Notes: generated by a model from the letters alone, not told the origin. A DNA stretch of 64,000 nt from an uncultured Gammaproteobacteria bacterium (GCA_964483115.1 CAYZZF010000001.1:19907-83906); one strand, 5' to 3'. Shown: positions 1 to 38,026, counted from the first letter of the stretch. Numbers and translations are program-made.

Positions 1-1389
1 ATTTCCGATTTTGGAATTACGGTATCACAGGCAAGCTGGATTGCTACCGCGTATATCATTGCAAATGCGATTTTTGTCCCAATTTTTGGAAAACTGGGGG
101 ATTTGACAGGAAGGAAACCATTATATCTTTTTGGGATTGTCGGATTTGTTGTTTCATCGATGTTGGCAGGACTCTCTTCAAACCTTCAGATGCTTATAAT
201 CTTTAGGATTTTACAGGCGATTACCGTTTCCATAGACTATCCTTTGGCACTTTCGATTATAGCTTTTACTTTTGAGGATAGAGGAAGAAGAGCACAGGCG
301 ATGGGGCTTTGGTCTGCAGTTTTCGGTGTTGCAGTAGTATTTGGCCCACTTATAGGAGGGCCTCTTATAGATAGTTTTTCTTGGAGGTCAATATTTTATA
401 TCAATGTTCCCTTAGGAGCACTGGCAACTTTTATGGCCTGGAGGTTTATTGAAGAGCCGGTACAAAAGATAAAAGGGATTAAAAATTTTGATGTGTGGGG
501 TTCGATACTTTTGGGATTAGCTCTGGGCGCATTGGTTTTAGTATTGGATCAAGGACAGAGTTGGGGATGGATAAGTTTCAATAGTATAATTTTCTATCTA
601 GTGACTGTCTTATCGTTAGTTCTTTTCGTCTTTATAGAAAAAAGACAGATTGAACCTATTGTAGACCTTAAATTTTTTAGAATCACCGAATTTACAGCGT
701 CTTTGATAGTCTCTTTCATAACTTTTATGGGCTTAATCGGAGGAATATTCCTTCTCCCTCTTTTCGTTCAGACTTATCTTGGGTACGATGTTACCAAATC
801 AGGATATTTATTCATACCGATGGCTATAGGAATGTTGATGTCTGCCCAGGTCGGCGCAAGACTTTCAGTCAGATTTCTACCAAGATACGTTGTAATGGTA
901 GGACTTTTATGGGCATCTTTCATACTTTATCTTTTTTCTAGCATAGACTTAACTTGGTCATTTGTTCATATAGCAATTCTATTATTCTTTTTCGCTGTGG
1001 GTCTTGGTTTTACTTTTGCGCCCTTAACAAATGCGGCCATATCAAGCGTCCCTATGCAAGAGGTAGGAGTAGCTTCTTCTATTCTTGCGTTGGCTCGAAA
1101 CATAGCTGGTGCATTCGGAATTGCTATCTTTGCCACAATTCTTACAAATAGCGCAAGTTCCGCAATAGTTAATGTACAAAAATATACTATTATTAATAAT
1201 TTTGACCCAAATATATTAAGACAAGCCGCATACCTTATGGTGATTAAGGCAAATTTAGTTTCTTTTAGTACAGTATTTTTTTATTCTATGATATTTACCT
1301 TAATAGGTGCTGGTGCTGCGTTTCTTCTTAGAGAACCAAGAAAAGATTACGAAGGCAAAATAGAATTTTCAAGCCAAGGAACAATGTAG
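1..1389 (+). CDS. MFS transporter, DHA2 (EmrB/QacA-like) efflux permease; 5' end lies outside the window
   Basis: The reading frame is open from base 1. It shows the MFS motif GKLGDLTGRKP followed by more than 10 hydrophobic helices. The ORF-track start at 103 is an internal Met. Confidence 0.75.
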   Translation: MSDFGITVSQASWIATAYIIANAIFVPIFGKLGDLTGRKPLYLFGIVGFVVSSMLAGLSSNLQMLIIFRILQAITVSIDYPLALSIIAFTFEDRGRRAQAMGLWSAVFGVAVVFGPLIGGPLIDSFSWRSIFYINVPLGALATFMAWRFIEEPVQKIKGIKNFDVWGSILLGLALGALVLVLDQGQSWGWISFNSIIFYLVTVLSLVLFVFIEKRQIEPIVDLKFFRITEFTASLIVSFITFMGLIGGIFLLPLFVQTYLGYDVTKSGYLFIPMAIGMLMSAQVGARLSVRFLPRYVVMVGLLWASFILYLFSSIDLTWSFVHIAILLFFFAVGLGFTFAPLTNAAISSVPMQEVGVASSILALARNIAGAFGIAIFATILTNSASSAIVNVQKYTIINNFDPNILRQAAYLMVIKANLVSFSTVFFYSMIFTLIGAGAAFLLREPRKDYEGKIEFSSQGTM

Positions 1390-1451: not shown

Positions 1452-2411
1452 ATGCATAAGGAACAAGAATCAAAAAAATCTAATAAAATTCTTAAAGTTA
1501 GTTCTTTAGGAGGTATTGTGCTAGCATTTAGCGCAATCATGTTCGGATCTACCGATAGAGAAGACAATAATGTATATCGTCCTTCAATCGTTATTACACC
1601 ATCAATTTCAGACTTAGACAAACCAAATGTAGAAGTTAGAAAGATGCCTACTCTGGATCCCCGTAATCTTTTAGGGCCGGATTCTTTGTTATCTCGTCCT
1701 CCAACTGAGTCTCCAGCCGAGATTCCCGCGGCGACCCCAACCGAAACCACTTCCTTGGAACTTAAATTAGATAGAATATCCAGTTTAATTTCTGATTTAT
1801 CAATAATTTTACCAAGAGCGGTAGAACCTTTAACCCCGGCTGAAGAACAAAATATTACGGATATTTTATCACGTTATTTTAACCTTAAGATTACCGCAGA
1901 ACTTGACGGGAAAAGATTAGACAGAAACTATGGTATTATTGGTAAAGAGCAACATCTTCCTCGTTACCCTGGAGACTCTATTGATACACATTTTGATAAT
2001 GAGGAAGATGTAAGACAATTCATGCAAGTTGATATGTCATCCAATCTGGGTGCATGGGGATATTTTGCTCCGTCCCGCGCACAAATGACCAAGCAGGATA
2101 GCGAGCGCGAAAAGTATTACATTGCAGTACAAACCTTTTTATCTCCCGGTTTTAATGAGCATGTTGCGGAATATTACAATTTTTTCAAATACAGAAAAAT
2201 ACTTGTTGTTAATCCCCAAAACGGGAAAGCTGTGGTTGCAGTAATTGGCGATTCCGGTCCTGCTACTTGGACAGGAAAACAGATTGGCGGTTCGCCGGAA
2301 GTTATGAGCTATTTGGAAAGATTGGATGGAGCGGAGCGCGGACCTGTTCTCTACTTTTTTGTTGATGATCCTCAGGACAAAGTGCCTCTAGGCCCAATTA
2401 CTACACAATAA
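1452..2411 (+). CDS. membrane-anchored/secreted protein with a Pro/Thr-rich linker and a C-terminal RlpA-like double-psi beta-barrel (lytic-transglycosylase/expansin-like) domain
   Basis: Has an N-terminal hydrophobic anchor and a PTESPAEIPAATPTETT linker. The C-terminus KILVVNPQNGKAVVAVIGDSGP...IGGSPEVMSYL matches the RlpA/DPBB core (V-N-x-NG-K-x-V-V-x-I-x-D-x-GP). There is an AAAGG Shine-Dalgarno 8 nt upstream of the ATG. Confidence 0.45.
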   Translation: MHKEQESKKSNKILKVSSLGGIVLAFSAIMFGSTDREDNNVYRPSIVITPSISDLDKPNVEVRKMPTLDPRNLLGPDSLLSRPPTESPAEIPAATPTETTSLELKLDRISSLISDLSIILPRAVEPLTPAEEQNITDILSRYFNLKITAELDGKRLDRNYGIIGKEQHLPRYPGDSIDTHFDNEEDVRQFMQVDMSSNLGAWGYFAPSRAQMTKQDSEREKYYIAVQTFLSPGFNEHVAEYYNFFKYRKILVVNPQNGKAVVAVIGDSGPATWTGKQIGGSPEVMSYLERLDGAERGPVLYFFVDDPQDKVPLGPITTQ

Positions 2412-2425
2412 CTATGAAGTTGTGA

Positions 2426-3370
2426 TTACTGTGCCTTTTGGAAAAAATCCCAGACCAGGTGGGTTAATTTATCCCCCAATTCATATCTGTCCGTATCATA
2501 CATATATATATCTTCTGCTTCATCAGATTGAGCCATAAAGCTAACAGCATATACTCCTTTTTCTGTAACAACTAAACCGGCATCAACTAAAATATTATCA
2601 AGCCAGCCGGGTTTATGGAAAACTTTTGCTTCATCTTCGAAATAAATTATTTTAACCGTGGGGAGTTGAGCATAGGAAAGAGCAAGTTCTGTAAACTCTT
2701 GAGAGAGAATTTCTCCTTGATAAAGTTTAATCCAAAATAAATTTAAGTCATTAGTTGTAGAATAGTTTTCTCCATAGCCCAAATAAGGATAGTCATCACT
2801 TCCGTCACTAAATCCATTATAAAAACCACTGTCCTGCATTCCCAACTGCGAAACAAAATTATGAAGTTTTTCAAGTCCAGTTTTCACGATTAACTCATCT
2901 GTTGCGGAATTGTCAGATTCTTCCATCATTTGTCTAATTAGAAAATCAATATTAGTGTCTAAAGCATAAAGTCCGACTTGCACATCTTTTAAAACTGAAG
3001 CAAGAACCAAGCTCTTAATTGCAGATGCCGGATAAAATTGTAAGTCCCCATTAATAGAAATTGATTCTTGACTATTCAGATCAGTAATAGAAATTGCCGC
3101 TGTTCCAGAAAACTGTTTAATCTCTTTTTGAAGATTATTTTTAAGTTCCTCCCATTCTCCGGTATTAAAGATTTCAAGTGGAGTAGATGAGGAGGACATT
3201 GGGTTTAACTCTGGAATTGACGTTGGAGTAACGATTGTAGGATAAGATACTCGTTTACTTTCTCTATCAGTACATCCAGATAAACCAGCAGTAGTTATCA
3301 GTACCAAGCTTCCTAAAAAAGAAGTAGTTTTAAATACTCTAGATTTTCTTGTTTCTTGCTCTTTAGACAT
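2426..3370 (-). CDS. class A beta-lactamase-fold serine hydrolase lipoprotein
   Basis: Signal peptide plus lipobox (LSGC). Carries the S-x-x-K motif (SAIKS), and the stretch MMEESDNSATDELIVKTGLEKLHNFVSQLGM aligns with the TEM SDN-loop region (MSDNTAANLLL...LTAFLHNMGD). A KPG triad stands in for KTG. Confidence 0.6.
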   Translation of the reverse strand: MSKEQETRKSRVFKTTSFLGSLVLITTAGLSGCTDRESKRVSYPTIVTPTSIPELNPMSSSSTPLEIFNTGEWEELKNNLQKEIKQFSGTAAISITDLNSQESISINGDLQFYPASAIKSLVLASVLKDVQVGLYALDTNIDFLIRQMMEESDNSATDELIVKTGLEKLHNFVSQLGMQDSGFYNGFSDGSDDYPYLGYGENYSTTNDLNLFWIKLYQGEILSQEFTELALSYAQLPTVKIIYFEDEAKVFHKPGWLDNILVDAGLVVTEKGVYAVSFMAQSDEAEDIYMYDTDRYELGDKLTHLVWDFFQKAQ

Positions 3371-3426
3371 ACAGATAATTTTATATGAGCTTTTCGTTAT
3401 CTTCCTTTAAACTTATAACTTTATAT

Positions 3427-4374
3427 TTATTTTATTCCTTCTCTCATTGTAATCATTTGCCAATTATTGGCATTTGCAGCTCCTATAATAGATGGAAGTG
3501 CAATTATATCATCAGGAATAGCATGTTGAAGAATAATGGTTCCTTGAAAAAAATTTTCAAATACGTTTCCAAGAATGTAGTTTATAGCGTCTTGATCAGT
3601 TCTTGGATATACTCGCCATCCGTTTGAATCTGAAGACCACATTGCAACCTTTAAACCTAGTTCCCCGCAAACTTTTAAAAGAAGAGGATTTTGATAGCCA
3701 AATATACCAGCACCGCCGGGTGGCCTTAAAAAGTACTGCCTGTAATCGCCCCCTACAGCTTCTTGTACAGCTTCTTGTTGTTTTAATATCTGATATCTTA
3801 TTTCATCTTCTGAAATATTTTCTAGCCATTCATGACTCCATGTATGATTTTCAATTGCATGCCCTTGCGCAACAGCTCTTTTATAGAGTTCTGGAGCAAA
3901 TCCTATAGTTCTACCGACTGGGTAGAATGTAAGATGTACATTATATTTTTGAGCAACATCAAGAGCTTGTTCTACTTGTGCGGGGTCCCAACCGTCATCA
4001 ATGGTAAGATATATTTGAGGTTTGTCTGCATTCCCTCTCCATACCACCTCTGCCGGTTTTGGTACTTCGATAGAAGCCGTGGGTTCGGGGGTAGGTTCTG
4101 GTATTGGTGTAGATTTAGGAGTAGAAGTTGATTCTGGAGTAGGTGATGGTTCTGGTGTTTTTGGCATAAGTTCCGAAATAGAAGTTGGTGTAGAAGCAAA
4201 AGGAGGTGCTTGATTACGACCTAGAAGTGGGTTAGGTGCATCTGGCTTTTCTGGCATGCCACAAGCGATTGTTATCAATCCTATACTTGTCGAGAGCGCA
4301 CCTTTTAAAATTTGTCGCCTAGAAAACTGCCGATTAAATATAAAGGTTTTTCGAATTTCTTTGTTGTTGCCCAT
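3427..4374 (-). CDS. polysaccharide deacetylase (CE4/NodB domain) lipoprotein with a Tat-type signal and a Pro/Thr linker
   Basis: NodB motifs TIDDG, HTWSH and LRPPGG. Leader contains SRRQILKG (twin-arginine motif) and ITIACG. Linker is TPEPSPTPESTSTPKSTPIPEPTPEPT. I chose the internal ATG at 4372-4374 because the longer ORF starts with TTG at 4416. Confidence 0.75.
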   Translation of the reverse strand: MGNNKEIRKTFIFNRQFSRRQILKGALSTSIGLITIACGMPEKPDAPNPLLGRNQAPPFASTPTSISELMPKTPEPSPTPESTSTPKSTPIPEPTPEPTASIEVPKPAEVVWRGNADKPQIYLTIDDGWDPAQVEQALDVAQKYNVHLTFYPVGRTIGFAPELYKRAVAQGHAIENHTWSHEWLENISEDEIRYQILKQQEAVQEAVGGDYRQYFLRPPGGAGIFGYQNPLLLKVCGELGLKVAMWSSDSNGWRVYPRTDQDAINYILGNVFENFFQGTIILQHAIPDDIIALPSIIGAANANNWQMITMREGIK

Positions 4375-4522
4375 ATTAGGGCAGCGTTTTATAGGATAAT
4401 AGATGGATACTATCAAATTACAGTCAATACGTCAAGGCCACAGCTTGACAAAGGTAATAGATCTATGATATTAAATTATTCAACTGTCTCAAAACTTCTA
4501 CGTTTCTGACTGCCCCAAAAAA

Positions 4523-5755
4523 ATGAAAAAAGAACGTAATTCTTCAGTTAAAAATTCTACTATTCCAGAAAACCTTTACAGGTCTAAGTTTTTAGAAGCT
4601 GTAAAGATTGTTTCCGACTCAAAAAATAAACTAGGTTTTATGCGCAAATTGGCAATTAGAGCCGCTATTTTGGCTCCAGCCTTTCTCTATGCTGCCTGTG
4701 CTGCAAGAGGCAATAACGATGAGGATTCTTTACCAAAATCATTCGCGAGTAATATCCCAAACGCAGCAAGTATTTTTGAGCCATCTCCTAGTCCAACTTT
4801 TGAAATCGTTTCTACACCAACTCCAACACCTGAATTAACTCTTGAGCCGACTCCACAACCAATCCCAAGTCCTACTCCTGAGCCAACGTTAGAGCCAACC
4901 CCAGAACCACCACAGGTTGATCTAAGTATTTGTCAACCCCAAGATACAAAGAAGGAAGGAACGCTCTATGTTACACCCAATATAGGTGTTAAAAAGAGAG
5001 TTTTTCCTTCTTTAGACTCGGTTTTTAATGGAGGAACTGCTTTAAATACAGAGCTTCTAATTGAATGTGAGAGAGATACCGATGGAGGGGTATGGTTTAG
5101 AGTTAATAGTTCTTACGGGGAATTTTGGATATCACAGCTTTATACAAGCAATGAACCGGTTTCAGTTCCGACACAGACGACATACACAGTACCACCAGAT
5201 AATTCCCGGTCGGAAATTAGACCAGGTGACGGCAACAAGATTATTCTGACATTTGATGATTCAGGGATGATGGAACAGATACTTGATATCTTAGACAGTT
5301 ACGGTGCCAAAGCCATTTTCTTCCCTACAGGTGACTATGCGAACAGTGTGCCCGATATTATACAGCGAGCCGAAAAAGAAGGCCATCTTGTCTGTAATCA
5401 CACAAAAGATCACGCAGATTTAACAACGCTTTCAGGTGAAGGAGTAAAGGAGGAAATTTTAGGTGGTGCTGGTGTGGGCGAATGTAATTTTCTTAGGCCT
5501 CCGTACGGGGCACACAATAATTTTGTTGATTCTATTGCAGAGAGTCTTGGTTATACAATTTTTATGTGGGATATAGATACAATGGATTGGGCAAGGCGCT
5601 ATCCCGGTGGTGATCAAGAGATTTTGAATATTGCATTATCCCAAGCTTATCCGGGTGCTGTCATATTGATGCACATGCACGTTCCTAATACAATAATTGC
5701 GCTTCCAGCAATACTTAAGGGATTAAAAGATGCTGGCTACGAATTACATTGGTAA
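4523..5755 (+). CDS. polysaccharide deacetylase (CE4/NodB domain) with a Pro/Thr linker and an SH3b-like middle domain
   Basis: NodB motifs LTFDDSG, HTKDHAD and LRPPYGA. Linker is TPTPTPELTLEPTPQPIPSPTPEPTLEPTPEPP. Hydrophobic leader ends in YAAC. An alternative start at the Met at 4640 (MRKLAIRAAIL) is possible. Confidence 0.75.
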   Translation: MKKERNSSVKNSTIPENLYRSKFLEAVKIVSDSKNKLGFMRKLAIRAAILAPAFLYAACAARGNNDEDSLPKSFASNIPNAASIFEPSPSPTFEIVSTPTPTPELTLEPTPQPIPSPTPEPTLEPTPEPPQVDLSICQPQDTKKEGTLYVTPNIGVKKRVFPSLDSVFNGGTALNTELLIECERDTDGGVWFRVNSSYGEFWISQLYTSNEPVSVPTQTTYTVPPDNSRSEIRPGDGNKIILTFDDSGMMEQILDILDSYGAKAIFFPTGDYANSVPDIIQRAEKEGHLVCNHTKDHADLTTLSGEGVKEEILGGAGVGECNFLRPPYGAHNNFVDSIAESLGYTIFMWDIDTMDWARRYPGGDQEILNIALSQAYPGAVILMHMHVPNTIIALPAILKGLKDAGYELHW

Positions 5756-6562: not shown

Positions 6563-7753
6563 ATGTCAAATCTCAAATCTCAAATCTCAAATCTCAAAAC
6601 TTTGGCATCTTTTTATTTGATAACAATTATTGCTTTATTCTTTTATTCTTTTACCCAAGTTGACTTAAATCTTACCTTGTCCAGGTGGTCTGTTTGGCAG
6701 GTAATTGAGAAATTTTTTCAGCATATAGGTTATTTTAACCGGCCACTCTCAACAAGTTTCTTTATTGCAATTATTGCATCGTTGTTTATCTTTTACATGA
6801 TATTTCTTTTCCTTTCTTACAAAAATAAGATTAGTGAAAAACAGGTATGGTATTTAATTATATTAACAGCTGTAATTTTATTATTTTCCTACAATGCATT
6901 TTCTTACGATTTATTCAACTATATCTTTGATGCAAAAATAATAACTTATTACCGTCAAAATCCGTATTTGCATCGTGCCCTTGATTTTCCTGCTGACCCG
7001 ATGCTTTCTTTTATGCGTTGGACGCATAGGTTTTATCCATACGGTCCGGTTTGGCTTGTCTTAACAGTTCCTCTATCGTTTGTTGGGTTTAATCACTTTC
7101 TTCCTACTTTTTTTCTTTTTAAGTTTCTCGGAGTCTTGAGTTTTCTAGGAACAGCCTTTTTTATAGGAAGGATTCTGCGCAAGATTTCTCCAGAAGATAA
7201 AATTTTTGGACTTATTCTTTTTGCATTTAACCCCCTAGTTATTATAGAAGGATTAGTATCGGCACATAATGATATGCCTATGATGTTTTTTGCCATATTG
7301 TCGCTATATCTCTTTTTAGAGAGGAAACATTTTTATTCATTTGTATCACTTCTTTTATCAATTGGGATTAAGTTTGCTACGGCATTTATAATTCCCGTTT
7401 ATGTTTATTTGCTTTTTAAGAGAAGACAAAAAGAGATCAACTGGAACAAAATCTTTATTTCGATAATTTTGCTTATGATTGTACCTATTATTATTGCAAC
7501 AATTAGGACCAATTTCCAACCATGGTATTTACTATATGTTCTGTCATTTACAGCTTTTATCAAAAAAAGTTTCTATGTGATTATTCCAGTTATCGTTTTA
7601 TCCTTTTTTTCTCTTTTAGAATATGTTCCTTTTCTATATCTTGGGAATTGGAATCCGCCGGTGCCGTTTATATTAAATTTGATTATGGTTATCTCAATTA
7701 TCGTCTCGATAGTTTTAATTATCGGCTGGAGATTTAGGCAAAAATATGCTTAA
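6563..7753 (+). CDS. polytopic membrane protein (about 10 TM), putative GT-C/DUF2029-like glycosyltransferase
   Basis: Hydrophobicity pattern. It is coupled 1 nt after the upstream DPM1-like gene. It begins with an in-frame (TCAAATC)x4 tract. Confidence 0.45.
   Translation: MSNLKSQISNLKTLASFYLITIIALFFYSFTQVDLNLTLSRWSVWQVIEKFFQHIGYFNRPLSTSFFIAIIASLFIFYMIFLFLSYKNKISEKQVWYLIILTAVILLFSYNAFSYDLFNYIFDAKIITYYRQNPYLHRALDFPADPMLSFMRWTHRFYPYGPVWLVLTVPLSFVGFNHFLPTFFLFKFLGVLSFLGTAFFIGRILRKISPEDKIFGLILFAFNPLVIIEGLVSAHNDMPMMFFAILSLYLFLERKHFYSFVSLLLSIGIKFATAFIIPVYVYLLFKRRQKEINWNKIFISIILLMIVPIIIATIRTNFQPWYLLYVLSFTAFIKKSFYVIIPVIVLSFFSLLEYVPFLYLGNWNPPVPFILNLIMVISIIVSIVLIIGWRFRQKYA
6566..6600 (+). repeat. (TCAAATC)x4 perfect plus one variant unit, in-frame immediately after the ATG of the CDS at 6563
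   Basis: Read directly: tcaaatc tcaaatc tcaaatc tcaaatc tcaaaac. Encodes SNLKSQISNLKT. Confidence 0.95.
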
Positions 7754-9278
7754 CTATTGGTATAATCTTTTTATGATAGTCAAAAAATACAGGTTTGAAA
7801 TTATTGCTGGTATCGCAATTTTTGTACTTTACTTTGTAACTCGCCTGTACAATATCATGTCTCTTCCAATTTTCACCGATGAGGCTATTTATACTCGATG
7901 GTCTCAGATTGCAAGATTTGATGCAAGCTGGCGATTTATTTCTTTGACAGACGGCAAACAGCCACTTTTTGTCTGGCTTAATATGACGGTGATGAGAATT
8001 ATTCGTGATCCTTTAATGGCAGGAAGAATAGTCTCGGTTTTTGCAGGATTTTTTACAATGCTCGGGCTTTTCTTTTTGGGCAATGAAATATTTAAAAATC
8101 GCTCCATAGGAATTTTATCTGCCACTGTCTATATTATTTTTCCGTTTGCTCTCGTTTACGACCGGATGGCACTTTATGACACTTTAGTGGGAACTTTTAC
8201 TGTCTGGAGCTTGTATTTTGAAATCCTTTTAATAAGGTATATTCGTCTTGATGTAGCATTAATTCTGGGAATAATACTGGGCGGCGGAGTTCTCACTAAG
8301 ACTTCAGGATTTTTTAATATCTATCTTGCTCCTTTTTTACTTCTTATTTTTGATTGGGGGAGCAAAAATAAATTAAAAAAATTAATAAAGTGGGCAGTAC
8401 TTATGGTCGTTGCTGTTATTCTTGCCTATGGATATTATTCTATTTTAAGACTCTCGCCTTTTTTCTACATCATAAATGAAAAAAATACAATTTTTATTTA
8501 TTCTTTTCGTGATTGGCTTTCTCACCCGTTTAATTTTTTCATAGGTAATATTAGAGGACTTTGGGATTGGTTTATAACATATATCACCTGGCCTTTTTTT
8601 ATTCTTATAATTTTATCTTTTTTCATTTCGCTAAAATTCACAAGAGAAAAAATTATTCTTGTAATTTGGTTTACTGTTCCTTTTGTCGCTCTTGCTCTTT
8701 TTGGAAGAGTCTTGTATCCCAGATTTATTCTTTTTATGACCTTGTCGCTCATTCCTCTTATAGCATTTTCCCTCACTGAAATATTTAAAATTTTGAAAAA
8801 TAAATATATATTGGTTGCACTTCTAATAGTCTTTTCTGTCCTGGCAATTCGGTCTGACTATCTAGTCCTCTCCGATTTTGCAAAAGCCCCGATTCCTCAG
8901 TCAGATCTTGGCCAGTATATAAATGATTGGCCCTCAGGGGGAGGAATAAGAGAGATAATTAATTATCTCTTGGATGAATCAAAAAAGGGTAAAATTTATG
9001 TTGCGTCACTTGGAACTTTTGGGTCTCTTCCCACATATTCCGTTGAAATTTATTTAGGAGATGATAAGAATATCGAAAAACGAGGAATATATCCTATTCC
9101 TGCAGAGATTCCTAAAGATTTAATTGAGAAGTCTAAAATAATGCCTACTTTTGTGCTTTTCTCAAATCAACATGAATTTGAAAAAGCTATTAAAAACTGG
9201 CCAATCTATCCTGTTATTGAGTACAAAAAAGGAATTAAAGATTCCTACTCAAGGCTATACAGGGTCCAATCAATCTAA
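7746..9278 (+). CDS. GT-C membrane glycosyltransferase, PMT/ArnT (GT39/GT83)-like
   Basis: Many TM helices. A TDEAIYTRWS loop-1 DE motif sits near the N-terminus. Confidence 0.55.
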   Translation: MLNYWYNLFMIVKKYRFEIIAGIAIFVLYFVTRLYNIMSLPIFTDEAIYTRWSQIARFDASWRFISLTDGKQPLFVWLNMTVMRIIRDPLMAGRIVSVFAGFFTMLGLFFLGNEIFKNRSIGILSATVYIIFPFALVYDRMALYDTLVGTFTVWSLYFEILLIRYIRLDVALILGIILGGGVLTKTSGFFNIYLAPFLLLIFDWGSKNKLKKLIKWAVLMVVAVILAYGYYSILRLSPFFYIINEKNTIFIYSFRDWLSHPFNFFIGNIRGLWDWFITYITWPFFILIILSFFISLKFTREKIILVIWFTVPFVALALFGRVLYPRFILFMTLSLIPLIAFSLTEIFKILKNKYILVALLIVFSVLAIRSDYLVLSDFAKAPIPQSDLGQYINDWPSGGGIREIINYLLDESKKGKIYVASLGTFGSLPTYSVEIYLGDDKNIEKRGIYPIPAEIPKDLIEKSKIMPTFVLFSNQHEFEKAIKNWPIYPVIEYKKGIKDSYSRLYRVQSI

Positions 9279-9286
9279 AATTTCAT

Positions 9287-11665
9287 ATGTTTTACAAAAA
9301 ACTTAAGGATCTATTCCTTAAGAATAGTTACTGTTTTTTGTTTCTCGTCATTGTCCTTTTTTTCTTCAGACCGGTGTTTATAGGTAAAATTCCTTTTCCA
9401 GGCGATCTTTTGATAAATGAAAACCCATATAAAACATTAGAAAGCTATCCAAATAAAGCCCAAGGAGCGGATGTTATAAAAGAAATATACCCCTGGAGAT
9501 TTTTTTCTATAAATCAAATAAAAAATGGCGATATTCCGTTTTGGAATCCTCATAATTTTTCTGGAAATCCGCAGCTTGCAAATTTTCAAACTGCAATTTT
9601 TTACCCTTTTAATATTTTATATTTCATATTTTCTTTTAATACTGCTTGGACAATTATTATTATGCTTCAGCCATTCTTAGCAGCCATATTTATGTATTTG
9701 TTTTTGTCAAAAGGACTGCTTCTTAAGAAATTCACTTCTTTTATTGGGGGAATTGTTTTTGCTTTTTCATCGTATATGATAGTTTGGCTTGAGTATGGGA
9801 ACATTGGGAGTACTTTATTGTGGCTTCCGCTAGCATTATTATTTACTAAATGGATTTTAGATAAACCATCTATTTTTAATTTTTTGTCATTGACATTTAC
9901 TCTAACTTTCAGCATTCTTGCAGGTTATATACAAGGAGTTTTTTATATTTATGTACTTTGCTTTTTTTACTTTTTATTTTTGTTAGTATTTGAAAGAAAA
10001 AAGAAAATAAAAATACGGAACATATCTATATTTTTAATTAGCATAATATTGCCAATTTTTCTATCGGCGTTCCAGTTTTTACCGACCTACAAATTATTTC
10101 TTAATTCAACAAGAGGAAGTTATTCAATTTCCCAAATATCCAATTTACTTTTACCATCGTTTTATTGGATTACGGCTTTTGCATCTGATTTTTTCGGCAA
10201 CCCAGCAACGCGTAATTATTGGATCAGTGGGACTTATATAGAAAGAGTGATGTATGTTGGTGTACCGATTATTTTTTTTGCTTTCTACGGAGTATCCAAA
10301 TCAAAAATTTTAGAAAAAAGATTTTTTTTAGTCTTGGGCACTTTGTCTTTGATATTAGCAACTAATCTGCCGCTTGTTAAATTTTTCTATCTTATACCTT
10401 TACCTGTAATATCAACCACTGTGCCAACAAGAGAGCTAAGTATTTTTATATTCAGTCTTATCGTCTTATCTTCGATGGGTATAGATTACTGGCTTATTAA
10501 TAAAGAGAATAAGAGCAAAATTTCCATAATTTTTTTGTTAATTTATGTAGCAATTTGGCTTGCAGTAATCATTTTATCCAAGTTAGGACCGGTGAATTAT
10601 CAATATCTGCAAATAACGCGACACAATCTTATTTTACCGAGTTTTTTAGCGATCGCGACGATAATAGTTTTTTACCTTAAAAGAAAAGCAAAAACATTAG
10701 GTTTAATTTTTCTTACTTTAATTGTTATTCTTGATTTGTTATATTTTTTCAATAAAATCACACCATTTTCTCCTACTACTTTTGTTTACCCAAAGACCTC
10801 AGTTGTCTCGTTTTTACAGAAAAATGCTGGGATTAATAGGTTTTGGGGTTATGGATCTGCTTATATTCCCGCTAATTTCCAGACCATTGACGGCACGTAT
10901 TCTCCAGAGGGCAATGATCCATTACATATAGAGTCTTACGGGCAACTTCTTGCTTCATCAGCAAAGGGTACGCTACCAAACGTCTTGCCAAGACCAGATG
11001 CAAATATTGTGCCGGGATTTGGAACTAATGATTTAAAAAATAATTATTACAGACAAAGAATTATTAATCTTTTGGGAGTTAAATATATATTGAATAAAAA
11101 TGATAGTCTTTTGAAAGAATATGTGCCTGACTATGATACCTTTGCGCAAAATTATTATAAGCTAGTTTGGCAGGATTCCCCTTGGCAGATTTATGAAAAT
11201 AAAAATGCTCTTCCAAGGTTTTTTATGACAGGAAGCTATGTTATTATTAAGGATAAAAATTCCGTAATTTCAGCCATTTACAACAAAAATCTTGATTTAC
11301 AAAAAACTTTAATTTTAGAAGAAAAACCATCAATGTCAATAGACGGAGATTCTTTAGGTATCGCAAAACTTTTATCTTATACGCCTAACAAAGTCTCATT
11401 TTCTACAAAAAGTAATGGTAACAGTCTTTTATTTCTATCCGATAATTATTGGGATGAATGGCAGGCACTTATTGACAACAAGCCCGTAAAAACATATATT
11501 GCTGATTATTCTTTTAGAGCAGTTGAGGTGCCTAAAGGCCAGCATACTTTTGTATTTTCTTACAATCCTGCCTCTTTTTTTCTTGGACTTAAAATATCAT
11601 CAATCAGTCTTTTAATTCTAATACTGATACCTTTATGGATAAAAAAATATGGTAAAGAAATATAA
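9287..11665 (+). CDS. yfhO: YfhO-family GT-C membrane glycosyltransferase
   Basis: Signature YPW-x(6-12)-PxWNP-x-xFSG-P-x-AN-x-Q-x-A-x-FYP (IYPWRFFSINQIKNGDIPFWNPHNFSGNPQLANFQTAIFYP). Length 792 aa with a C-terminal extracytoplasmic domain. Confidence 0.75.
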   Translation: MFYKKLKDLFLKNSYCFLFLVIVLFFFRPVFIGKIPFPGDLLINENPYKTLESYPNKAQGADVIKEIYPWRFFSINQIKNGDIPFWNPHNFSGNPQLANFQTAIFYPFNILYFIFSFNTAWTIIIMLQPFLAAIFMYLFLSKGLLLKKFTSFIGGIVFAFSSYMIVWLEYGNIGSTLLWLPLALLFTKWILDKPSIFNFLSLTFTLTFSILAGYIQGVFYIYVLCFFYFLFLLVFERKKKIKIRNISIFLISIILPIFLSAFQFLPTYKLFLNSTRGSYSISQISNLLLPSFYWITAFASDFFGNPATRNYWISGTYIERVMYVGVPIIFFAFYGVSKSKILEKRFFLVLGTLSLILATNLPLVKFFYLIPLPVISTTVPTRELSIFIFSLIVLSSMGIDYWLINKENKSKISIIFLLIYVAIWLAVIILSKLGPVNYQYLQITRHNLILPSFLAIATIIVFYLKRKAKTLGLIFLTLIVILDLLYFFNKITPFSPTTFVYPKTSVVSFLQKNAGINRFWGYGSAYIPANFQTIDGTYSPEGNDPLHIESYGQLLASSAKGTLPNVLPRPDANIVPGFGTNDLKNNYYRQRIINLLGVKYILNKNDSLLKEYVPDYDTFAQNYYKLVWQDSPWQIYENKNALPRFFMTGSYVIIKDKNSVISAIYNKNLDLQKTLILEEKPSMSIDGDSLGIAKLLSYTPNKVSFSTKSNGNSLLFLSDNYWDEWQALIDNKPVKTYIADYSFRAVEVPKGQHTFVFSYNPASFFLGLKISSISLLILILIPLWIKKYGKEI

Positions 11666-13331: not shown

Positions 13332-15077
13332 ATGAATTTTTTGAAAAAGTATCTAGGACTTCTAGTGGTTATTTTTCTTTCGATACCCTCTATTCTTTCT
13401 CTTTTTCACCCTGGGTTTTTCCCAATGCATGATGATACGCAAGTGGCGAGAGTTTTTGAGATAGGGAAGGCACTAAGAGATGGAATGTTTCCCGTGCGCT
13501 GGGTTGCAGATCTTGGATATGGATATGGTTACCCAATTTTTAATTTTTATGCACCGCTTGCTTATTATTTTGGAGGACTTCTAAGTATTTTAGGGTTTAA
13601 CGCACTTACCTCAACGAAAATTATGATGGGAACAGGAATTCTACTTTCAGGTATTTTTATGTATTTTTTTGCTCAGGAATTGTTTGGGAAGCTTGGAGGA
13701 GTAGTTTCAGGGTTATTTTATGTTTATGCGCCATATCATGCTGTTGATGTTTATGTTAGGGGCGATGTTGCGGAATTCTGGGCATACGCATTTATACCTT
13801 TAATGTTTCTTGGATTCTACAAATTAATCTCAAATCTTCCGCCTCGCAGCCAGACGAGTAAATCTAAAAACTTGAGATGGGTAATTGTTGGAGCGATTGG
13901 ATTTGCGGGAATTGTTCTATCTCATAATTTAACAGCTATGATGATAATACCATTTTTAATAATTATTCTATTATTCTATTGCTTCGTCGCTTTTAGAAAC
14001 AAGAACCTATTTACTATTTACTATTTACTATTTACTATTTTTTTGGGTTTACTTTTGTCTGCCTTTTATTGGTTACCTGCTCTTTTTGAAATGAAATCTA
14101 CAAATGTACTATCTCAAATTGGAGGAGGGGCAAATTTTCGAGATCACTTTGTTTGTTGGCAGCAGCTTTGGAGCTCTCCTTGGGGTTTTGGAGGTTCAAC
14201 CTCAGGGTGTATTGATGGAATATCTTTTATGGTTGGTAAATTATATATACTTATGTCTACAGCCGCAATTGTCTTAGCAACTTCTTTAATAAATAAAAAT
14301 TTAATCAGAAAAAAAGATAATAGCAAGATATTTTTTATTTTATTTTCAATTTTTGGACTGCTCGTTTCAGTATTCTTGACACTTGAAATATCTAAACCTG
14401 TTTGGGAGTTAATTTTCCCTATGGCATTTTTGCAATACCCATGGAGATTTCTTCTATTTACTTCGTTTTTTACTTCAGTTCTTGCCGGAGCGCTTTTCTG
14501 GTTTTTACGAATTTTATTTTATAAGTTTAGGCACTTTAATACTATATATTATTTAAGCGCAGTAATTGTGATCTTAGCTCTTATTTACCTTAACGCAAAA
14601 CTTTTTATACCACAAATAATTATTAACAAAAATAACAATGATTACACAAATAATGTTGCTCTCAAGTGGATCGCCTCAAAAATATCCGATGAGTATATGC
14701 CAAAAAACTTTAATAAACCTAAATCAGAAAACCAGATTGTAAATAACAAAATATTACCCGCAGAATCTAGTGTAAAAATTTTATACGGCGTTCAAGATAC
14801 TAAAAGTTTACAAGCTTTTATCGATGTTCCTAAAGATACAAAAGTTAAGATAAACACCGCCTTTTTTCCCGCATGGACTGCTTTTGTAGATGGTAAAAAA
14901 GCTGAGCTGTATGCAACAAATCAAGGAGTGAACATTTTTATGTCTTCGGGAAAACATACATTTAATATGGAGTTTATAGAAACGCCGATAGAAAAATTGG
15001 CTAATTTTATCTCTCTTACTGGCTTATTTATACTTATTATTGGTATAATTCCTCTAAAGAGAAGCCTATATAAATGA
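13332..15077 (+). CDS. polytopic membrane protein, GT-C-like family A, paralog 2
   Basis: Same N-terminal signature (LFHPGFFPMHDDT...GMFPVRWVADLGYGYGYP). Contains an in-frame (CTATTTA)x4 tract. Confidence 0.5.
   Translation: MNFLKKYLGLLVVIFLSIPSILSLFHPGFFPMHDDTQVARVFEIGKALRDGMFPVRWVADLGYGYGYPIFNFYAPLAYYFGGLLSILGFNALTSTKIMMGTGILLSGIFMYFFAQELFGKLGGVVSGLFYVYAPYHAVDVYVRGDVAEFWAYAFIPLMFLGFYKLISNLPPRSQTSKSKNLRWVIVGAIGFAGIVLSHNLTAMMIIPFLIIILLFYCFVAFRNKNLFTIYYLLFTIFLGLLLSAFYWLPALFEMKSTNVLSQIGGGANFRDHFVCWQQLWSSPWGFGGSTSGCIDGISFMVGKLYILMSTAAIVLATSLINKNLIRKKDNSKIFFILFSIFGLLVSVFLTLEISKPVWELIFPMAFLQYPWRFLLFTSFFTSVLAGALFWFLRILFYKFRHFNTIYYLSAVIVILALIYLNAKLFIPQIIINKNNNDYTNNVALKWIASKISDEYMPKNFNKPKSENQIVNNKILPAESSVKILYGVQDTKSLQAFIDVPKDTKVKINTAFFPAWTAFVDGKKAELYATNQGVNIFMSSGKHTFNMEFIETPIEKLANFISLTGLFILIIGIIPLKRSLYK
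14007..14041 (+). repeat. (CTATTTA)x4 perfect plus one variant unit, in-frame in the family-A gene at 13332
   Basis: Read directly: ctattta x4 then ctatttt. Encodes LFTIYYLLFTIF. Confidence 0.95.
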
Positions 15078-27502: not shown

Positions 27503-28215
27503 AATTATCAATTATAATGCCTGTTTTTAATGAGGAGAAAACAATACGAGATATTCTTGGAAAAGTGGTTGCTGTAGATATCCAAGGTGTTAGCAAAGAA
27601 ATTATTGTTGTTGATGACGGATCGACTGATGCTAGCGCATCTCAAATCTCAAATCTCAAATCTCAAAACTTAAATTTTAAATTTATACAACATAAAAAAA
27701 ATATGGGGAAAGGAGCAGCTGTTAGGGCAGGAATTGAAAATTCGACAGGGGATTATATCATAATTCAAGATGCGGATTTGGAATATGAGCCAAATGATAT
27801 AAAAAAACTTATTGCGCCAGTTCAAAAGGGCCAAGCACAGGTTGTATATGGGACAAGACTTAATCGCCTGCCGAATTTTACAAGAGATGAGAGAACCTTT
27901 CTTTTTCTGCTGCACTATCTTGGTAACAGATTCTTAAGTCTTGTAACAAGCATTTTATACAGACAGTGGATTACCGATATGGAAACCTGCTATAAACTTT
28001 TTCCCAAAAAAGCTTTAGAGAAAGTAAAACTTAATTCTAGAAGATTTGATTTTGAACCGGAAATCACTTCTAAGTTACTTAAGAAAGAGTATAAAATTTT
28101 AGAAGTACCAATCGTAACTAAACCTAGGGGATACGATGAAGGGAAAAAACTTCACACAATAAGGGATGGATCTATAGCTTTATGGACATTAATAAAATAC
28201 AGATTTATCGATTAA
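27499..28215 (+). CDS. GT2 polyprenyl-phosphate sugar synthase (DPM1/GtrB-like)
   Basis: LSIIMPVFNEE, VVDDGSTDAS and IQDADLEYEP. Has an (ATCTCAA)x4 tract after DDGSTDAS. Confidence 0.7.
   Translation: MKLSIIMPVFNEEKTIRDILGKVVAVDIQGVSKEIIVVDDGSTDASASQISNLKSQNLNFKFIQHKKNMGKGAAVRAGIENSTGDYIIIQDADLEYEPNDIKKLIAPVQKGQAQVVYGTRLNRLPNFTRDERTFLFLLHYLGNRFLSLVTSILYRQWITDMETCYKLFPKKALEKVKLNSRRFDFEPEITSKLLKKEYKILEVPIVTKPRGYDEGKKLHTIRDGSIALWTLIKYRFID
27639..27685 (+). repeat. (ATCTCAA)x4 perfect plus degenerate units, in-frame in the GT2 gene at 27499
   Basis: atctcaa x4 then aacttaa attttaa. Encodes SQISNLKSQNLNFK. Confidence 0.95.
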
Positions 28216-28218
28216 TTT

Positions 28219-29706
28219 ATGGAAAAGATTAGATCATTTATTAAGGAACATTGGTTTGGAATCTGCATTTTTTTAATTATCATTTTGGCTTCATTCCTTG
28301 ACTTTTATAATTATGACAGTCGCTGGGCATTGGCCCATGATCAGGCAAGGGATGCTATAGTTGCAAGGGAGGCTTTAAGGCAGCATAGAGTTCCAACACT
28401 TGGACCATTTTCACAAGCAGGTTCTTTTGTGATGGGTCCTTTATGGTATTGGGAAATAGGAGTGGCGACAGCTATTTATCCAAATGCCGTATTAACTCCA
28501 TGGATTATCCTAACTTTATCTTATATTGTATCTGTCTATTTGATGATTTTAATTGGGAAAGATTTAGGTGGAAAATGGCTGGGTTTGATTATTGGATTTT
28601 TTACTGCAATTTCCCCATCCCTAATTGCACAAAGCGGGAATTTAACAAATCCTTCGGGCGTTGCGATCTTTTCAGTGCTTTCTGTCTTGTTTGCTATTAA
28701 ATACATAAAAACTAAAAGAAATATTTATTTATTTTTAATTCCTTTTTTTGTATCCCTTGCTATAAATATTCATTTACAAGCAATAGGTTTGATAACGCTT
28801 ATACCAGTTGTTTTGATTGTTCAAAGACCCAATCTTAAAAGCATACCATTATTGCTTGCTGGATTTATTCTGCCCTTTGTACCTTTAATCATTTTTGACT
28901 TAAATCATAATTTTTATGACACAAGAGCTTTACTCGATTATTATTTTTTCGGTCAATATAAAATATATAATCCAAATAGATGGTTAACTTATGTTGGGCT
29001 ATATTGGCCTTCAGCCTGGGCATATGTTATTGGGGGGCAAAAGATACTGGGTTATTTTTCAATTGTACTTGTATCAGTAGTTACAGTCTATCTATTTTTA
29101 AAAAGAAAAATAGAGAAACCTTTGCTTTTTGTCATCCTAACTTTCCTTTTAATTTTTGTTATTTTACGGTACTATCGTGGGGTAAGGTTTGATAGTTATC
29201 TAATTTTTGCTCATCCCTTTGTGCTAATTTTGACAGGTTGGGCAACTTATAACTTAATTAAATTTAATAAAATATTAGGCCTTTTATTAGTTATACTATT
29301 AATAATAGGAAGCATGAAGATAAATTTATTAAATATTTTTAATAGTACTAATTATGCTTTAATCCAAGCAAAAGATTGGGAGAGAGTTTTGGCAAAAACT
29401 TATCCTGGTAAGAAATTCAAAATTTATGACTATAGACAAAAATATGGAAGTAATACACTGCCTTTAAGTCTTTATATGAGTTCAAAAAATAAAATAAGTG
29501 ACAATGGAATTAAAATAGGATTGGCAGTTGCAACATCAAGTTCTGACTTTGTCCATCCAGTTGTTTTTGGAGAGATAGGGCGATATCAATTATTTAATTT
29601 AGATAGTTCAACCAGCGGTGAGTTATCCAAAGAAGGATGGTTTCTCGTTAATCCAAGTACTGTCTATCAGGCAACCGAAGAGTGGTATTATGGTAAAAAA
29701 TTATGA
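28219..29706 (+). CDS. GT-C membrane glycosyltransferase (PMT_2-like)
   Basis: Polytopic. N-terminal loop DQARDAIVAREAL...PTLGPF. Confidence 0.45.
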   Translation: MEKIRSFIKEHWFGICIFLIIILASFLDFYNYDSRWALAHDQARDAIVAREALRQHRVPTLGPFSQAGSFVMGPLWYWEIGVATAIYPNAVLTPWIILTLSYIVSVYLMILIGKDLGGKWLGLIIGFFTAISPSLIAQSGNLTNPSGVAIFSVLSVLFAIKYIKTKRNIYLFLIPFFVSLAINIHLQAIGLITLIPVVLIVQRPNLKSIPLLLAGFILPFVPLIIFDLNHNFYDTRALLDYYFFGQYKIYNPNRWLTYVGLYWPSAWAYVIGGQKILGYFSIVLVSVVTVYLFLKRKIEKPLLFVILTFLLIFVILRYYRGVRFDSYLIFAHPFVLILTGWATYNLIKFNKILGLLLVILLIIGSMKINLLNIFNSTNYALIQAKDWERVLAKTYPGKKFKIYDYRQKYGSNTLPLSLYMSSKNKISDNGIKIGLAVATSSSDFVHPVVFGEIGRYQLFNLDSSTSGELSKEGWFLVNPSTVYQATEEWYYGKKL

Positions 29707-36302: not shown

Positions 36303-38026
36303 TGTTTGGGTTGAAAATGAATAAAAAAATTGTTTATCTTTGTCTTTTTTTGATTATTATTACTGCCTCAATATTAAGATTATGGCAGTTAGGAAATGTT
36401 CCGCCTTCTCCAGATTGGGATGAGGCTGCTCTTGGGTATAATGCATATTCGATTTTACATACAGGCCGCGACGAGTATGGAAAGTTATTGCCGATTGTAC
36501 TTAGGTCATTTGATGATTATAAGCCTGCTTTATATGCATATTTAGTCATTCCATTTATCAAAATAATTGGTCTAAATGTAGTCGCGGTAAGATTACCTTC
36601 AGTAATCTTTGGCATACTGACTGTTATTGCAACATATTTCTTGGTTAAAGAATTACTCGGCGAAAAACTCAAAGCTCAAAATGCAAATCTCAAAATTGTA
36701 ACTCAAAACTCAAAAGTTGAACCACTTGCTCTTTTAACAGCGTTTTTACTTGCAATTTCTCCCTGGCACATCCAATTTTCAAGAATTGCGTTCGAATCAA
36801 ATGTTGGTCTTGCATTTAATGTTTTCTTTGTATTTTTCTTTCTCAAAGGTCTTAAAAAACCATGGTTGCTTATTTTATCTGCTTTCTTTATGGGAATAAA
36901 TATATATGTCTATCAGAGTGAAAAAGTTTTTACCCCGCTTTTACTTTTAGCGCTTGTCGTGATATTTAGAAAAGAGCTTTTTTCTATTCCTAAAAAATAT
37001 ATTATTTATGCAGTAGTTATTGGTATTTTGGTGTTTTTACCAATGGCAGGATATATCATTAGCAACAAAAACGTTTTTGAAAGAGCGCAAGGAGTCAGTA
37101 TCTTTGCAGAGTCCTCACAGCTTTTGGAAGAAAATTCTAAAAAACTTCTTGTTGATAGGCAAAACAATGATTTCTTAGGTCTCATACTAGATAACCGCCG
37201 TATCGTTTTTGCCAAAGAGATTATATCAGGATATGTTTCGCACTTTAATCTTAATTGGCTTTTTATAACTGGTGATATTGCAAGGCATCATGCTCCTAAT
37301 ATGGGACTTTTGTATCTTTTCGAATTACCATTCTTGTTTGTTGGTATCTATGAGTTGATTTTTGGTAAGTTTGATAAAAAAATAAAGTTTTTAATATTTT
37401 CGTGGTTTCTTATTGCACCTATACCAGCGTCAATTACAAGTGGAGTGCCTCATGCGGTTAGGTCCCTCAATTTTCTTCCCATGTTCCAAATATTTATAGC
37501 ATTAGGAATAGTTAGCAGTATTGCTTTAATTTCAAATTTTAAATTTAAAATTTTAAATTTTAAAATATGGAAACTATTTGCTATTTGCTATTTGCTATTT
37601 GCTATTTTTAATTTTTTATATTATTTAGACCAATATTTTGTTCAGCTTAATTATTTTAACTCAAAAGATTGGCAGTATGGCTATAAACAAACAATAGATA
37701 CCGTTAAGCAGATAGAAGTAAAATATAAAAAAATTATTGTATCTAACCAGCCATATTTAGATCAGTCTTATATGTTTTTTCTCTTTTACTTAAAATACCC
37801 ACCCGAATTGTATCAGAAAGAATCAAAATTTGCTTCTGGGGGTTTTAGAGAAAATCATAAATTTGGAAAATTTGAATTTAGGCCATTTAATTTTGAAAAT
37901 GAAAAAGAAACAGAAGTTTTGTATATAGGAAGACCGCTTGATTTTCCGCAAAATGACTTAGGACAAGTAAAAACCATAAATTTTTTAGATGGAACTCCGG
38001 CAATAAAAATGGTTGAAAGATTATGA
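36299..38026 (+). CDS. GT-C membrane glycosyltransferase (ArnT/PMT_2-like), second tandem paralog
   Basis: GNVPPSPDWDEAALGYNAYSIL...DEYGKLLPI...YKPALYAYL. Carries a degenerate heptamer tract plus (AAATTTT)x4 and (CTATTTG)x4 tracts. Confidence 0.6.
   Translation: MMFGLKMNKKIVYLCLFLIIITASILRLWQLGNVPPSPDWDEAALGYNAYSILHTGRDEYGKLLPIVLRSFDDYKPALYAYLVIPFIKIIGLNVVAVRLPSVIFGILTVIATYFLVKELLGEKLKAQNANLKIVTQNSKVEPLALLTAFLLAISPWHIQFSRIAFESNVGLAFNVFFVFFFLKGLKKPWLLILSAFFMGINIYVYQSEKVFTPLLLLALVVIFRKELFSIPKKYIIYAVVIGILVFLPMAGYIISNKNVFERAQGVSIFAESSQLLEENSKKLLVDRQNNDFLGLILDNRRIVFAKEIISGYVSHFNLNWLFITGDIARHHAPNMGLLYLFELPFLFVGIYELIFGKFDKKIKFLIFSWFLIAPIPASITSGVPHAVRSLNFLPMFQIFIALGIVSSIALISNFKFKILNFKIWKLFAICYLLFAIFNFLYYLDQYFVQLNYFNSKDWQYGYKQTIDTVKQIEVKYKKIIVSNQPYLDQSYMFFLFYLKYPPELYQKESKFASGGFRENHKFGKFEFRPFNFENEKETEVLYIGRPLDFPQNDLGQVKTINFLDGTPAIKMVERL
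36665..36714 (+). repeat. degenerate 7-nt periodic tract (aaactca aagctca aaatgca aatctca aaattgt aactcaa aactcaa) in the GT-C gene at 36299
   Basis: Read directly. Confidence 0.75.
37534..37608 (+). repeat. two adjacent heptamer tracts, (AAATTT[T/A])x4 then (CTATTTG)x4 plus one variant unit, in-frame in the GT-C gene at 36299
   Basis: aaatttt aaattta aaatttt aaatttt ... ctatttg x4 ctatttt. Encodes FKILNFKIWKLFAICYLLFAIF. Confidence 0.9.

Follow-up and report, generated by a model that had tools for sequence, protein, structure and literature searches.

Analysis of a 64,000-nucleotide (nt) stretch of DNA deposited under the name of an uncultured Gammaproteobacteria bacterium (GCA_964483115.1 CAYZZF010000001.1:19907-83906; the window) showed four consecutive genes, here named A, B, C, and D, whose products have the leaders, linkers, and folds of cell-wall enzymes. 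The best reading, given a probability of roughly 0.6, is that the four proteins jointly remodel the envelope of the cell that produces them. This reading draws on the folds, families, motifs, leaders, and linkers of the proteins, on the homology of two leaders, and on neighbourhood statistics; the substrates, the cleavage chemistry, and the action on self and not on a host are what we infer.

Gene arrangement

Open reading frame (ORF) calling confirmed the four genes in a row that an earlier reading of the DNA alone (the sequence-only reading) had described, and they occupied the whole interval 1452-5755. Gene A lies at 1452-2411 (+ strand, 319 amino acids (aa)), gene B at 2426-3370 (- strand, 314 aa), gene C at 3427-4374 (- strand, 315 aa), and gene D at 4523-5755 (+ strand, 410 aa). 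The longest ORF for gene C covered 3427-4416, with an alternative TTG start at 4416, and the start at 4374 was taken from an independent gene caller applied to two other assemblies of this DNA. Genes A and B are convergent and separated by a gap of 14 nt. Genes C and B share a strand, C being the upstream gene across a gap of 56 nt, and are assumed to be co-transcribed, while D is followed 44 nt downstream by a GT2 gene on the same strand. The divergent intergenic region between C and D (4375-4522, 148 nt) contained promoter-like hexamers on both strands, which are consensus matches only. This layout predicts three transcription units (A; C then B; D then the GT2 gene) and not one operon.

Export signals and tethers

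The strongest hydrophobic segment was N-terminal in all four proteins and was preceded by a positively charged n-region, by which A, B, C, and D are all predicted to be exported and tethered to the producer membrane by a lipoprotein signal or a signal anchor. A 20-residue stretch with at least 70% Pro, Thr, Ser, or Glu (PTSE) was found in 4/4 of these proteins and in 0/42 of the other window ORFs, an exclusivity that points to a common architecture beyond chance. The sequence-only reading had given each protein a signal or anchor together with a (T/E)P(E/T)P-type linker. The N-terminal hydrophobic leader and the PTSE-rich stretch held for all four, but a canonical lipobox ([LVI][ASTVI][GAS]C after the h-region) was present only in B (LSGC), and (T/E)P(E/T)P repeats proper only in C and D. 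Relaxed lipoboxes were found in C (TIAC) and D (YAAC). Protein A had no lipobox and no cysteine anywhere, and it reads GST where B has GCT. The linker of A was shorter (PPTESPAEIPAATPTETT), and that of B was just S/T/P-rich.

The leader of B (aa 1-56; 3203-3370, - strand) includes the lipobox L-S-G-C33 at 3272-3283. In C, the Tat-like motif S-R-R-Q-I-L-K (4303-4323, - strand) is followed by T-I-A-C38 at 4261-4272 and by a Pro/Thr/Glu/Ser linker (aa 56-113; 4036-4209, - strand) with a PTSE fraction of up to 0.92. The Tat motif attributed to C earlier is thus present as a string, but Pfam TAT_signal scored 12.4 bits against a cut-off of 22.7 bits. No match to TatA or TatC of E. coli was returned from the window or from related loci totalling 1.44 Mb, a scope that falls short of a whole-genome test. 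In D, hydrophobicity placed the anchor at aa 43-59 (4649-4699, + strand), ending in Y-A-A-C59, after a 41-residue basic n-region that is kept in the orthologues, and PTSE content placed a Pro/Thr/Glu linker at aa 82-131 (4766-4915, + strand).

The deacetylases C and D

Both C and D matched Pfam Polysacc_deac_1 well above the cut-off of 23.1 bits (100 bits, E 1.2e-28 for C; 84 bits, E 1e-23 for D), which bears out the earlier description of two divergently transcribed CE4 deacetylases. The NodB/CE4 domain of C lies at 3430-4035 (- strand; TIDDG, HTWSH, RPPGG, DSNGW, and ILQH) and that of D at 5225-5752 (+ strand; TFDD, HTKDH, RPPYG, DIDTMDW, and LMH). Of the five CE4 motifs (TFDD; H-S/T-x-x-H; R-P-P-Y; D-x-x-D-W; L-x-H), D has all and C a near-full set. 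Compared with the CE4 peptidoglycan deacetylases SpPgdA (2c1i), B. subtilis PdaC (6h8l) and PdaA (1w17), and B. cereus Bc1960, C has RPPGG instead of RPPYG (Y to G) and an altered fourth motif (DSNGW), and both proteins differ in their long TPEP-type tethers and their Tat-like or lipobox-like leaders. All NCBIfam equivalog scores for C and D were far below cut-off (for example, 119 against 298 for PdaA and 89 against 800 for PgdA), so no orthology to any characterised deacetylase is claimed. Fold matches of the two proteins included xylan and chitin esterases besides peptidoglycan deacetylases. An origin of C and D as a recent duplicate pair was ruled out, as they share only 30% identity.

Between its tether and its catalytic domain, D carries a putative divergent SH3b/GW-like wall-binding domain (aa 133-216; 4919-5170, + strand) with predicted beta strands and two invariant cysteines (C137 and C182), which fit an extracytoplasmic location. 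The SH3b-like domain named in the sequence-only reading gave no Pfam SH3 match in D itself and is kept on remote evidence. Sub-threshold SH3_3 matches were found in the D orthologues P0274 and P0275 (E 0.002 and 0.015), and a significant one (E 1.6e-07) in the aligned slot of P0300, a more distant deacetylase. Comparison of the D domain with SH3_3 sequences from the aligned slot of related deacetylases on hhalign gave a probability of 73% (E 3e-05), and the domain profile matched the GW repeats of InlB (E 5.9e-4). In the D orthologue P0277, the corresponding slot holds a LysM domain, an interchange that argues for a wall ligand containing N-acetylglucosamine (GlcNAc). The module resembles the SH3b (SH3_3) and GW domains known from Gram-positive wall-binding proteins, among them InlB of Listeria and enzymes of the lysostaphin type, in being beta-rich, about 70 residues long, and placed between tether and catalytic domain; it differs from them in falling below the Pfam threshold and in its two invariant cysteines.

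The serine hydrolase B

The beta-lactamase-fold lipoprotein with SxxK and SDN motifs proposed for gene B was verified by a match to Pfam Beta-lactamase2 (PF13354; 106.5 bits, E 1.6e-30, with the cut-off at 22 bits). Alignments and the sequence itself placed motif 1, S116-A-I-K119, at 3014-3025, motif 2, S152-D-N154, at 2909-2917, and motif 3, K253-P-G255 where class A enzymes have K-T/S-G, at 2606-2614, all on the - strand. KPG was also found in the relatives P0271 and L095_b, and KSG only in L096. No equivalent of the omega-loop Glu166/Asn170 was aligned in B or its relatives with the RWEPELN of TEM-1, and the omega loop of B appeared shorter and different, in a loop alignment of low confidence. 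The NCBIfam model bla_class_A scored 40.9 bits on B and its cut-off of 200 was not reached.

Class A beta-lactamases are told apart from PBP-A, which is a DD-carboxy/endopeptidase, by their omega-loop Glu (PMC11189452). Given KPG and no evident omega-loop Glu, B is better called a PBP-A-like serine DD-peptidase candidate than a beta-lactamase, and in its sequence it resembles PBP-A DD-peptidases more than beta-lactamases. With scores of about 20-34 bits, 3cjm, Tll2115 (PBP-A), and 4ewf were the nearest solved structures. PBP-A of Thermosynechococcus elongatus (Tll2115; PDB 2j7v), which was among the closest of them with E 8.5e-06 and 6.8e-06, shares with B the SxxK and SDN motifs and the lack of an evident omega-loop catalytic Glu. 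The differences are that the similarity amounts to about 28 bits, that the third motif of B is KPG and not KTG, and that B is a lipoprotein with an S/T/P-rich tether from a very rare family that includes a subtype without the catalytic Ser and Lys.

A search of 5.8e9 proteins gave one relative of B at E<=1e-3 (47% identity), and further relatives were found in three loci of a metagenome scan and in one more, L093. These B-like proteins were distributed into an active subtype (SxxK, S-D/S-N, HK-P/S-G) and a degenerate subtype (GCxxN, SxP) from which the nucleophile-lysine pair is gone. Degenerate genes are located in L093 at 8763-9887 (-), in L097 at 1882-2616 (+), and in L095 at 21-764 (+). 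Those with an N-terminus present (L093 and L097) have a Tat-like SRRxFL leader, and the one in L095 stands in tandem with an active-type copy. The degenerate protein may be a pseudoenzyme partner.

The predicted double-psi beta-barrel protein A

Protein A gave no match on Pfam (full length at E<=1; isolated domain at E<=10), NCBIfam, or PHROG. PDB sequences likewise gave no match and no double-psi beta-barrel (DPBB) chain, whether the query was A as a single sequence or a profile of 40 sequences, and when 1.84e9 representatives were searched exhaustively by profile, only the A family itself came back, with no bridge to other families. The DPBB fold was recovered solely from the predicted structure, and A is accordingly described as a predicted DPBB at the fold level only. 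The sequence-only reading had called A an RlpA-like DPBB protein; the predicted structure upholds the barrel while DPBB_1 gave no match, an outcome which that reading had itself named as refuting, and the call is kept because the structural evidence overrides the failed profile search.

The leader of A (aa 1-56; 1452-1619, + strand) is homologous to that of B and replaces the canonical N-terminus of the family. It is followed by a linker with a PTSE fraction of 0.75 (aa 57-104; 1620-1763, + strand), modelled as low-confidence or disordered, and by a folded domain (aa 105-319; 1764-2408, + strand) of two long helices, a conserved insert (EQHL, D175, THFD), and then the barrel. The predicted local distance difference test score was below 50 over most of aa 1-82 and rose only from about aa 95. 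The motif D267-S-G-P (2250-2261, + strand) is a candidate equivalent of the "NDRGP" active-site Asp of RlpA, and D267, G269, and P270 were invariant in 40/40 sequences of the A family. The catalytic Asp of reference is that of DRGP in RlpA and Asp70 in PA4485, and D157N is an active-site mutant of P. aeruginosa RlpA. The hidden Markov model of the family matched its segment VVNPeNGKavVVvIGDaGP to ITNLANGRMIVVRINDRGP of E. coli RlpA with a weak score of 2.6 bits, and local hhalign paired GAWGYF with GLAAIY and IAVQTFL with TAAHPTLP, also weakly, at a probability of 19%. In enzymatic DPBB proteins, a conserved catalytic Asp is a hallmark (PMC3539698; PMC8820737, RlpA D145A).

The A family differs from RlpA-like DPBB proteins (DPBB_1, PF03330; P. 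aeruginosa PA4485, PDB 4avr; RlpA) in lacking profile-level homology to them, in an additional conserved stretch of about 95 residues on the N-terminal side, in which EQHL, D175, and THFD are invariant, and in having GGSPEV in place of the last "IDLS" motif. Its canonical members are bitopic membrane proteins whose N-terminus is basic and cytoplasmic, and their genes are accompanied by a conserved partner ORF of about 100 aa. Protein A ends with the barrel and has no SPOR match, whereas RlpA proper, a septal lytic transglycosylase that acts on denuded glycan strands, has a C-terminal SPOR domain, and RlpA proper has a lipoprotein anchor while A of the window is not a lipoprotein.

The first 56 aa of A and B were 45% identical (E 2e-09 on BLASTP), and the likeness extends to the DNA, in which an inverted repeat and a DNA alignment were found. 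The lipobox Cys codon of B, TGT, is TCT (Ser) in A. Between B and its closest relative, P0271, the leaders were about 27% identical by the count of invariant alignment columns, and the catalytic domains more than 50%. The leaders of A and B are thus closer to each other than those of B and P0271, which looks like an exchange within the genome. The core of A was not unusually divergent (63% identity to family members, compared with 66% among those), and A deviates at six otherwise near-invariant family positions. Protein A is an atypical, signal-anchored copy (paralogue) of an unannotated DPBB family.

The A family in other genomes

The A family numbered 4712 homologues at 90% clustering, all annotated as hypothetical and 0 with a Pfam domain, and formed 313 clusters at 50% identity among the 1.84e9 representatives. 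Matches were found in 327 species genomes, and the informative titles among the 80 listed were mostly Levybacteria/Levyibacteriota. The best match to A among the scanned species representatives had 66% identity. From this distribution, the source organism is most likely a Levybacteria-type Patescibacterium. Many A-family records from metagenome-assembled genomes (e.g., L010, L012, and L013) are titled "uncultured Gammaproteobacteria bacterium"; these titles are probably a placeholder or mislabel and no evidence for the family in Gammaproteobacteria. The literature searched yielded no paper on the DPBB family of A or on Levybacteria wall enzymes.

The canonical basic N-terminus, HYxxLKxKWxxRH..KHK, followed by a transmembrane helix, was present in 39/39 aligned homologues and missing in A of the window. 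In 86 of 87 A-family loci outside the window, the canonical gene was followed, across a median distance of 20 nt, by a partner ORF of about 100 aa (96-108; L003 8894-9220, L006 8917-9243, L008 9002-9292, and 83 further loci), which is missing from the window. The product of this ORF is helical, without a signal peptide or Pfam match, and is probably a cytoplasmic partner of the basic N-terminus. The neighbours of canonical A-family genes are housekeeping genes (for example, SecA, PrfB, FtsEX, and sigma-70). One member of the family, P0203 (644 aa), is fused to a LytR_cpsA_psr (LCP) domain, and a LytR_C protein follows the pair of A-family and partner genes in about nine loci (L006 9245-10315; also L043, L027, L037, L078, L061, L042, L050, and L036). 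The fusion and these neighbours tie the A family to wall-glycopolymer attachment.

Conservation of the gene set

The synteny check that the sequence-only reading had proposed came out negative, as B-, C-, or D-like genes were found at 0/87 of the other A-family loci, with flanks of up to 10 kb per side, and conserved four-gene synteny was thereby ruled out. The four-gene set is lineage-specific and not a conserved operon or module. Only the adjacency of B-like and D-like genes recurred, in two other contigs. In L093, a B-like lipoprotein gene stands divergent beside a D-orthologue, and in L097 the B-like and D-like genes are paired with one small gene between them. D-orthologues are usually located between a MerR-type helix-turn-helix gene and rplJ/rplL. 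The recurrent adjacency, the tethers, and the exchange of leader sequence between A and B suggest a functional association. The earlier description of the genes as a cell-wall toolkit remains fair for an exported set able to deacetylate, trim, and cut, but the toolkit is not a conserved module.

Proposed function and alternative explanations

In the proposed mechanism, the four proteins would be extracytoplasmic enzymes on the external face of the cell membrane, with flexible Pro/Thr-rich tethers that would let their catalytic domains reach the cell's own wall. C and D would be metal-dependent CE4 de-N/O-acetylases acting on GlcNAc or N-acetylmuramic acid of peptidoglycan or of a wall-linked glycan, with D aimed at the wall by its SH3b/GW-like domain. 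B would be a class-A-fold serine acyl-enzyme hydrolase of the PBP-A type that most likely trims or cleaves stem peptides containing D-Ala. A, as a DPBB of the RlpA/MltA/expansin kind, would most likely cut glycan strands through Asp267, or possibly just loosen them. Together they would edit the producer envelope during growth or division, beside a large surface-glycan island. In favour of a self-directed role are the housekeeping neighbours of the A family and its occurrence in 327 species genomes, its LCP fusion and LytR_C neighbours, and the more than 35 envelope-glycan genes that border the cluster. For the origin of A, the catalytic part of a Levybacteria-type DPBB gene would have lost its cytoplasmic N-terminus and the small partner gene and gained a copy of a B-type lipoprotein leader, whose lipidated Cys would have been lost later.

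Several points weigh against this reading. The CE4 fold cannot tell peptidoglycan from chitin, xylan, or other acetylated glycans, and D may be co-transcribed with genes of the glycan island. The substrate of B could be other than peptidoglycan, its third motif being KPG and not KT/SG, and the B-like genes beside D-orthologues in L093 and L097 belong to the subtype without SxxK and SDN. No sequence profile connects protein A with a characterised DPBB enzyme, the motif of A aligns weakly with that of RlpA, and by analogy with many DPBB proteins a non-enzymatic role is conceivable; expansins, loosenins, and kiwellins are DPBB proteins that are not enzymes. The four-gene arrangement is unique to the lineage, which leaves co-function without synteny support. 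A, B, C, D, and the A family are also known from sequence alone, in which action on self and action on a host would look the same.

The alternatives are not mutually exclusive. The four genes could be independent neighbours at the edge of the island, with C and D serving the island polysaccharide and not peptidoglycan, an explanation that we regard as doubtful but serious. It accords with the absence of B-, C-, and D-like genes near other A-family genes, with the three separate transcription units, with the matches of the CE4 fold to xylan and chitin esterases, and with the position of D, whose GT2 neighbour at 44 nt opens a same-strand run of GT2, GT4, GT-C, flippase, and rhamnose genes that extends over about 56 kb. 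Service to the island is countered by the D-orthologues elsewhere, which adjoin ribosomal-protein genes and not glycan genes and carry binding modules of the peptidoglycan type (SH3b/GW-like or LysM). Independence, for its part, fits poorly with the B-like/D-like adjacency in two other contigs, with the sequence exchanged between the leaders of A and B, and with Pro/Thr linkers in all four of these window genes and only in these. A role in resistance, in which B would be a true beta-lactamase acting with MarR-MFP-MFS (membrane-fusion-protein and MFS transporter) efflux while C and D deacetylate the wall against lysozyme-type attack, is very unlikely. Peptidoglycan deacetylases (PgdA) are classical lysozyme-resistance factors, MarR, two membrane-fusion-protein genes, and an MFS transporter lie directly upstream of A, and B, which carries SxxK and SDN, gives matches to models of class A beta-lactamases; yet B stays far below the bla_class_A cut-off (40.9 of 200 bits), has KPG and no aligned equivalent of Glu166/Asn170 (PMC11189452 for the role of the Glu), and is on the opposite strand, with A between it and the efflux genes.

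An offensive toolkit, with which an episymbiont would open or modify host peptidoglycan at the contact site, as the sequence-only reading had speculated, is just as improbable. The Patescibacteria in cultivation live as epibionts (PMC11665869, PMC10633639), a tether of 50-60 residues could extend past the producer's thin wall, and B and the window form of A are near-orphans limited to the lineage. The loss of the cytoplasmic N-terminus and partner gene from A could also mean release from internal control. Against such an attack, no secretion-system, toxin, immunity, or adhesin context was found, the neighbours being efflux and glycan-biosynthesis genes; all four proteins are anchored to the producer membrane and not released; genes of the A family are core genes with housekeeping neighbours; and peptidoglycan deacetylation usually shields a wall rather than destroys it. 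We know of no Levybacteria host. A further possibility, unlikely though slightly less so, is that the DPBB family of A is an undescribed wall-remodelling system under transmembrane control, of which the window holds a de-regulated offshoot working with B, C, and D, possibly on a partner wall. If so, the basic N-terminus and the small cytoplasmic partner would gate an extracellular glycan-cleaving barrel together with LCP-type ligases, and A of the window would have lost both controls and borrowed the leader of its PBP-A-like neighbour.

To our knowledge, almost nothing is known of how the ultra-small, largely uncultured Patescibacteria build and remodel their envelope. The superfamilies of all four proteins were already known. 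What is new is a DPBB family invisible to profiles, with a partner gene and an LCP link, a leader-swapped copy of it, a rare KPG-bearing B-like family with a degenerate subtype, and the tether architecture. The locus is a clear example of a leader swap between neighbouring exported genes, the rare PBP-A-like lipoprotein family comprises both an active and a degenerate subtype and recurs in association with a CE4 deacetylase, and the common tether architecture is placed beside many PMT-type glycosyltransferases. It is a matter of speculation that the Pro/Thr tethers are O-glycosylation targets of the PMT-like enzymes of the island. The main value of these findings lies in better annotation and in candidates for biochemistry, and current views are not overturned.

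Genomic context

The genes upstream of A encode Lon, MarR, the two membrane-fusion proteins, and the MFS transporter. Downstream, the surface-glycan island of about 56 kb (5800-61764) lies nearly all on one strand and contains more than 35 envelope-glycan genes. From 5.8 kb to at least 62 kb, almost all genes are assigned to the making of surface glycans. The GT-C genes of the island comprised seven of the PMT_2 type, three of the YfhO type, two GT87-like, and one AftD-like (1185 aa, with a CBM_4_9 region), and the island also contained many GT2/GT4 genes, two flippases, RmlC/RmlD-type and other sugar-nucleotide enzymes, and a DegT aminotransferase. Two large island ORFs, 13332-15077 (581 aa) and 28219-29706 (495 aa), had no Pfam match at E<=1e-3.

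The GC content of the region of A to D was raised (0.37-0.41, compared with about 0.32), while GC at third codon positions (GC3) in the four genes was 0.22-0.30, equal to the remaining window. This native GC3 ruled out recent horizontal transfer and assigns the excess to Pro, Thr, Ala, and Gly codons, that is, to amino-acid composition. A phage or defence origin was also rejected, there being no meaningful PHROG matches. Across the window, cumulative GC skew rose steadily, and the + strand carries nearly all genes. The 64,000 nt contained neither a tRNA gene nor an Rfam family at the gathering threshold.

Tandem repeats of 7 nt with 4-9 copies were found in the window, including seven perfect arrays of at least 4 copies at 6566-6598, 14007-14040, 27639-27667, 37574-37607, 38362-38392, 44314-44342, and 62635-62662, and imperfect arrays at 26709, 35839, 36664, 37528, 63089, and 63336. 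The window had no perfect arrays of period 5, 6, or 8-11, and 30 simulated windows had none. The literature search gave no paper on heptanucleotide repeats in the candidate phyla radiation. Six of the seven perfect arrays are located inside island ORFs (five glycosyltransferase genes and one unannotated ORF), and one begins 3 nt past the start codon of the GT87-like gene at 6563-7753. Since 7 is not divisible by three, the gain or loss of a copy would cause a frameshift, and the arrays are candidates for phase-variation switches of the slipped-strand kind. Related loci totalling 1.42 Mb were likewise enriched for period 7 alone (8 arrays), at about 20-fold lower density. The short-read contigs L001 and L002 both end within the array at 6566-6598.

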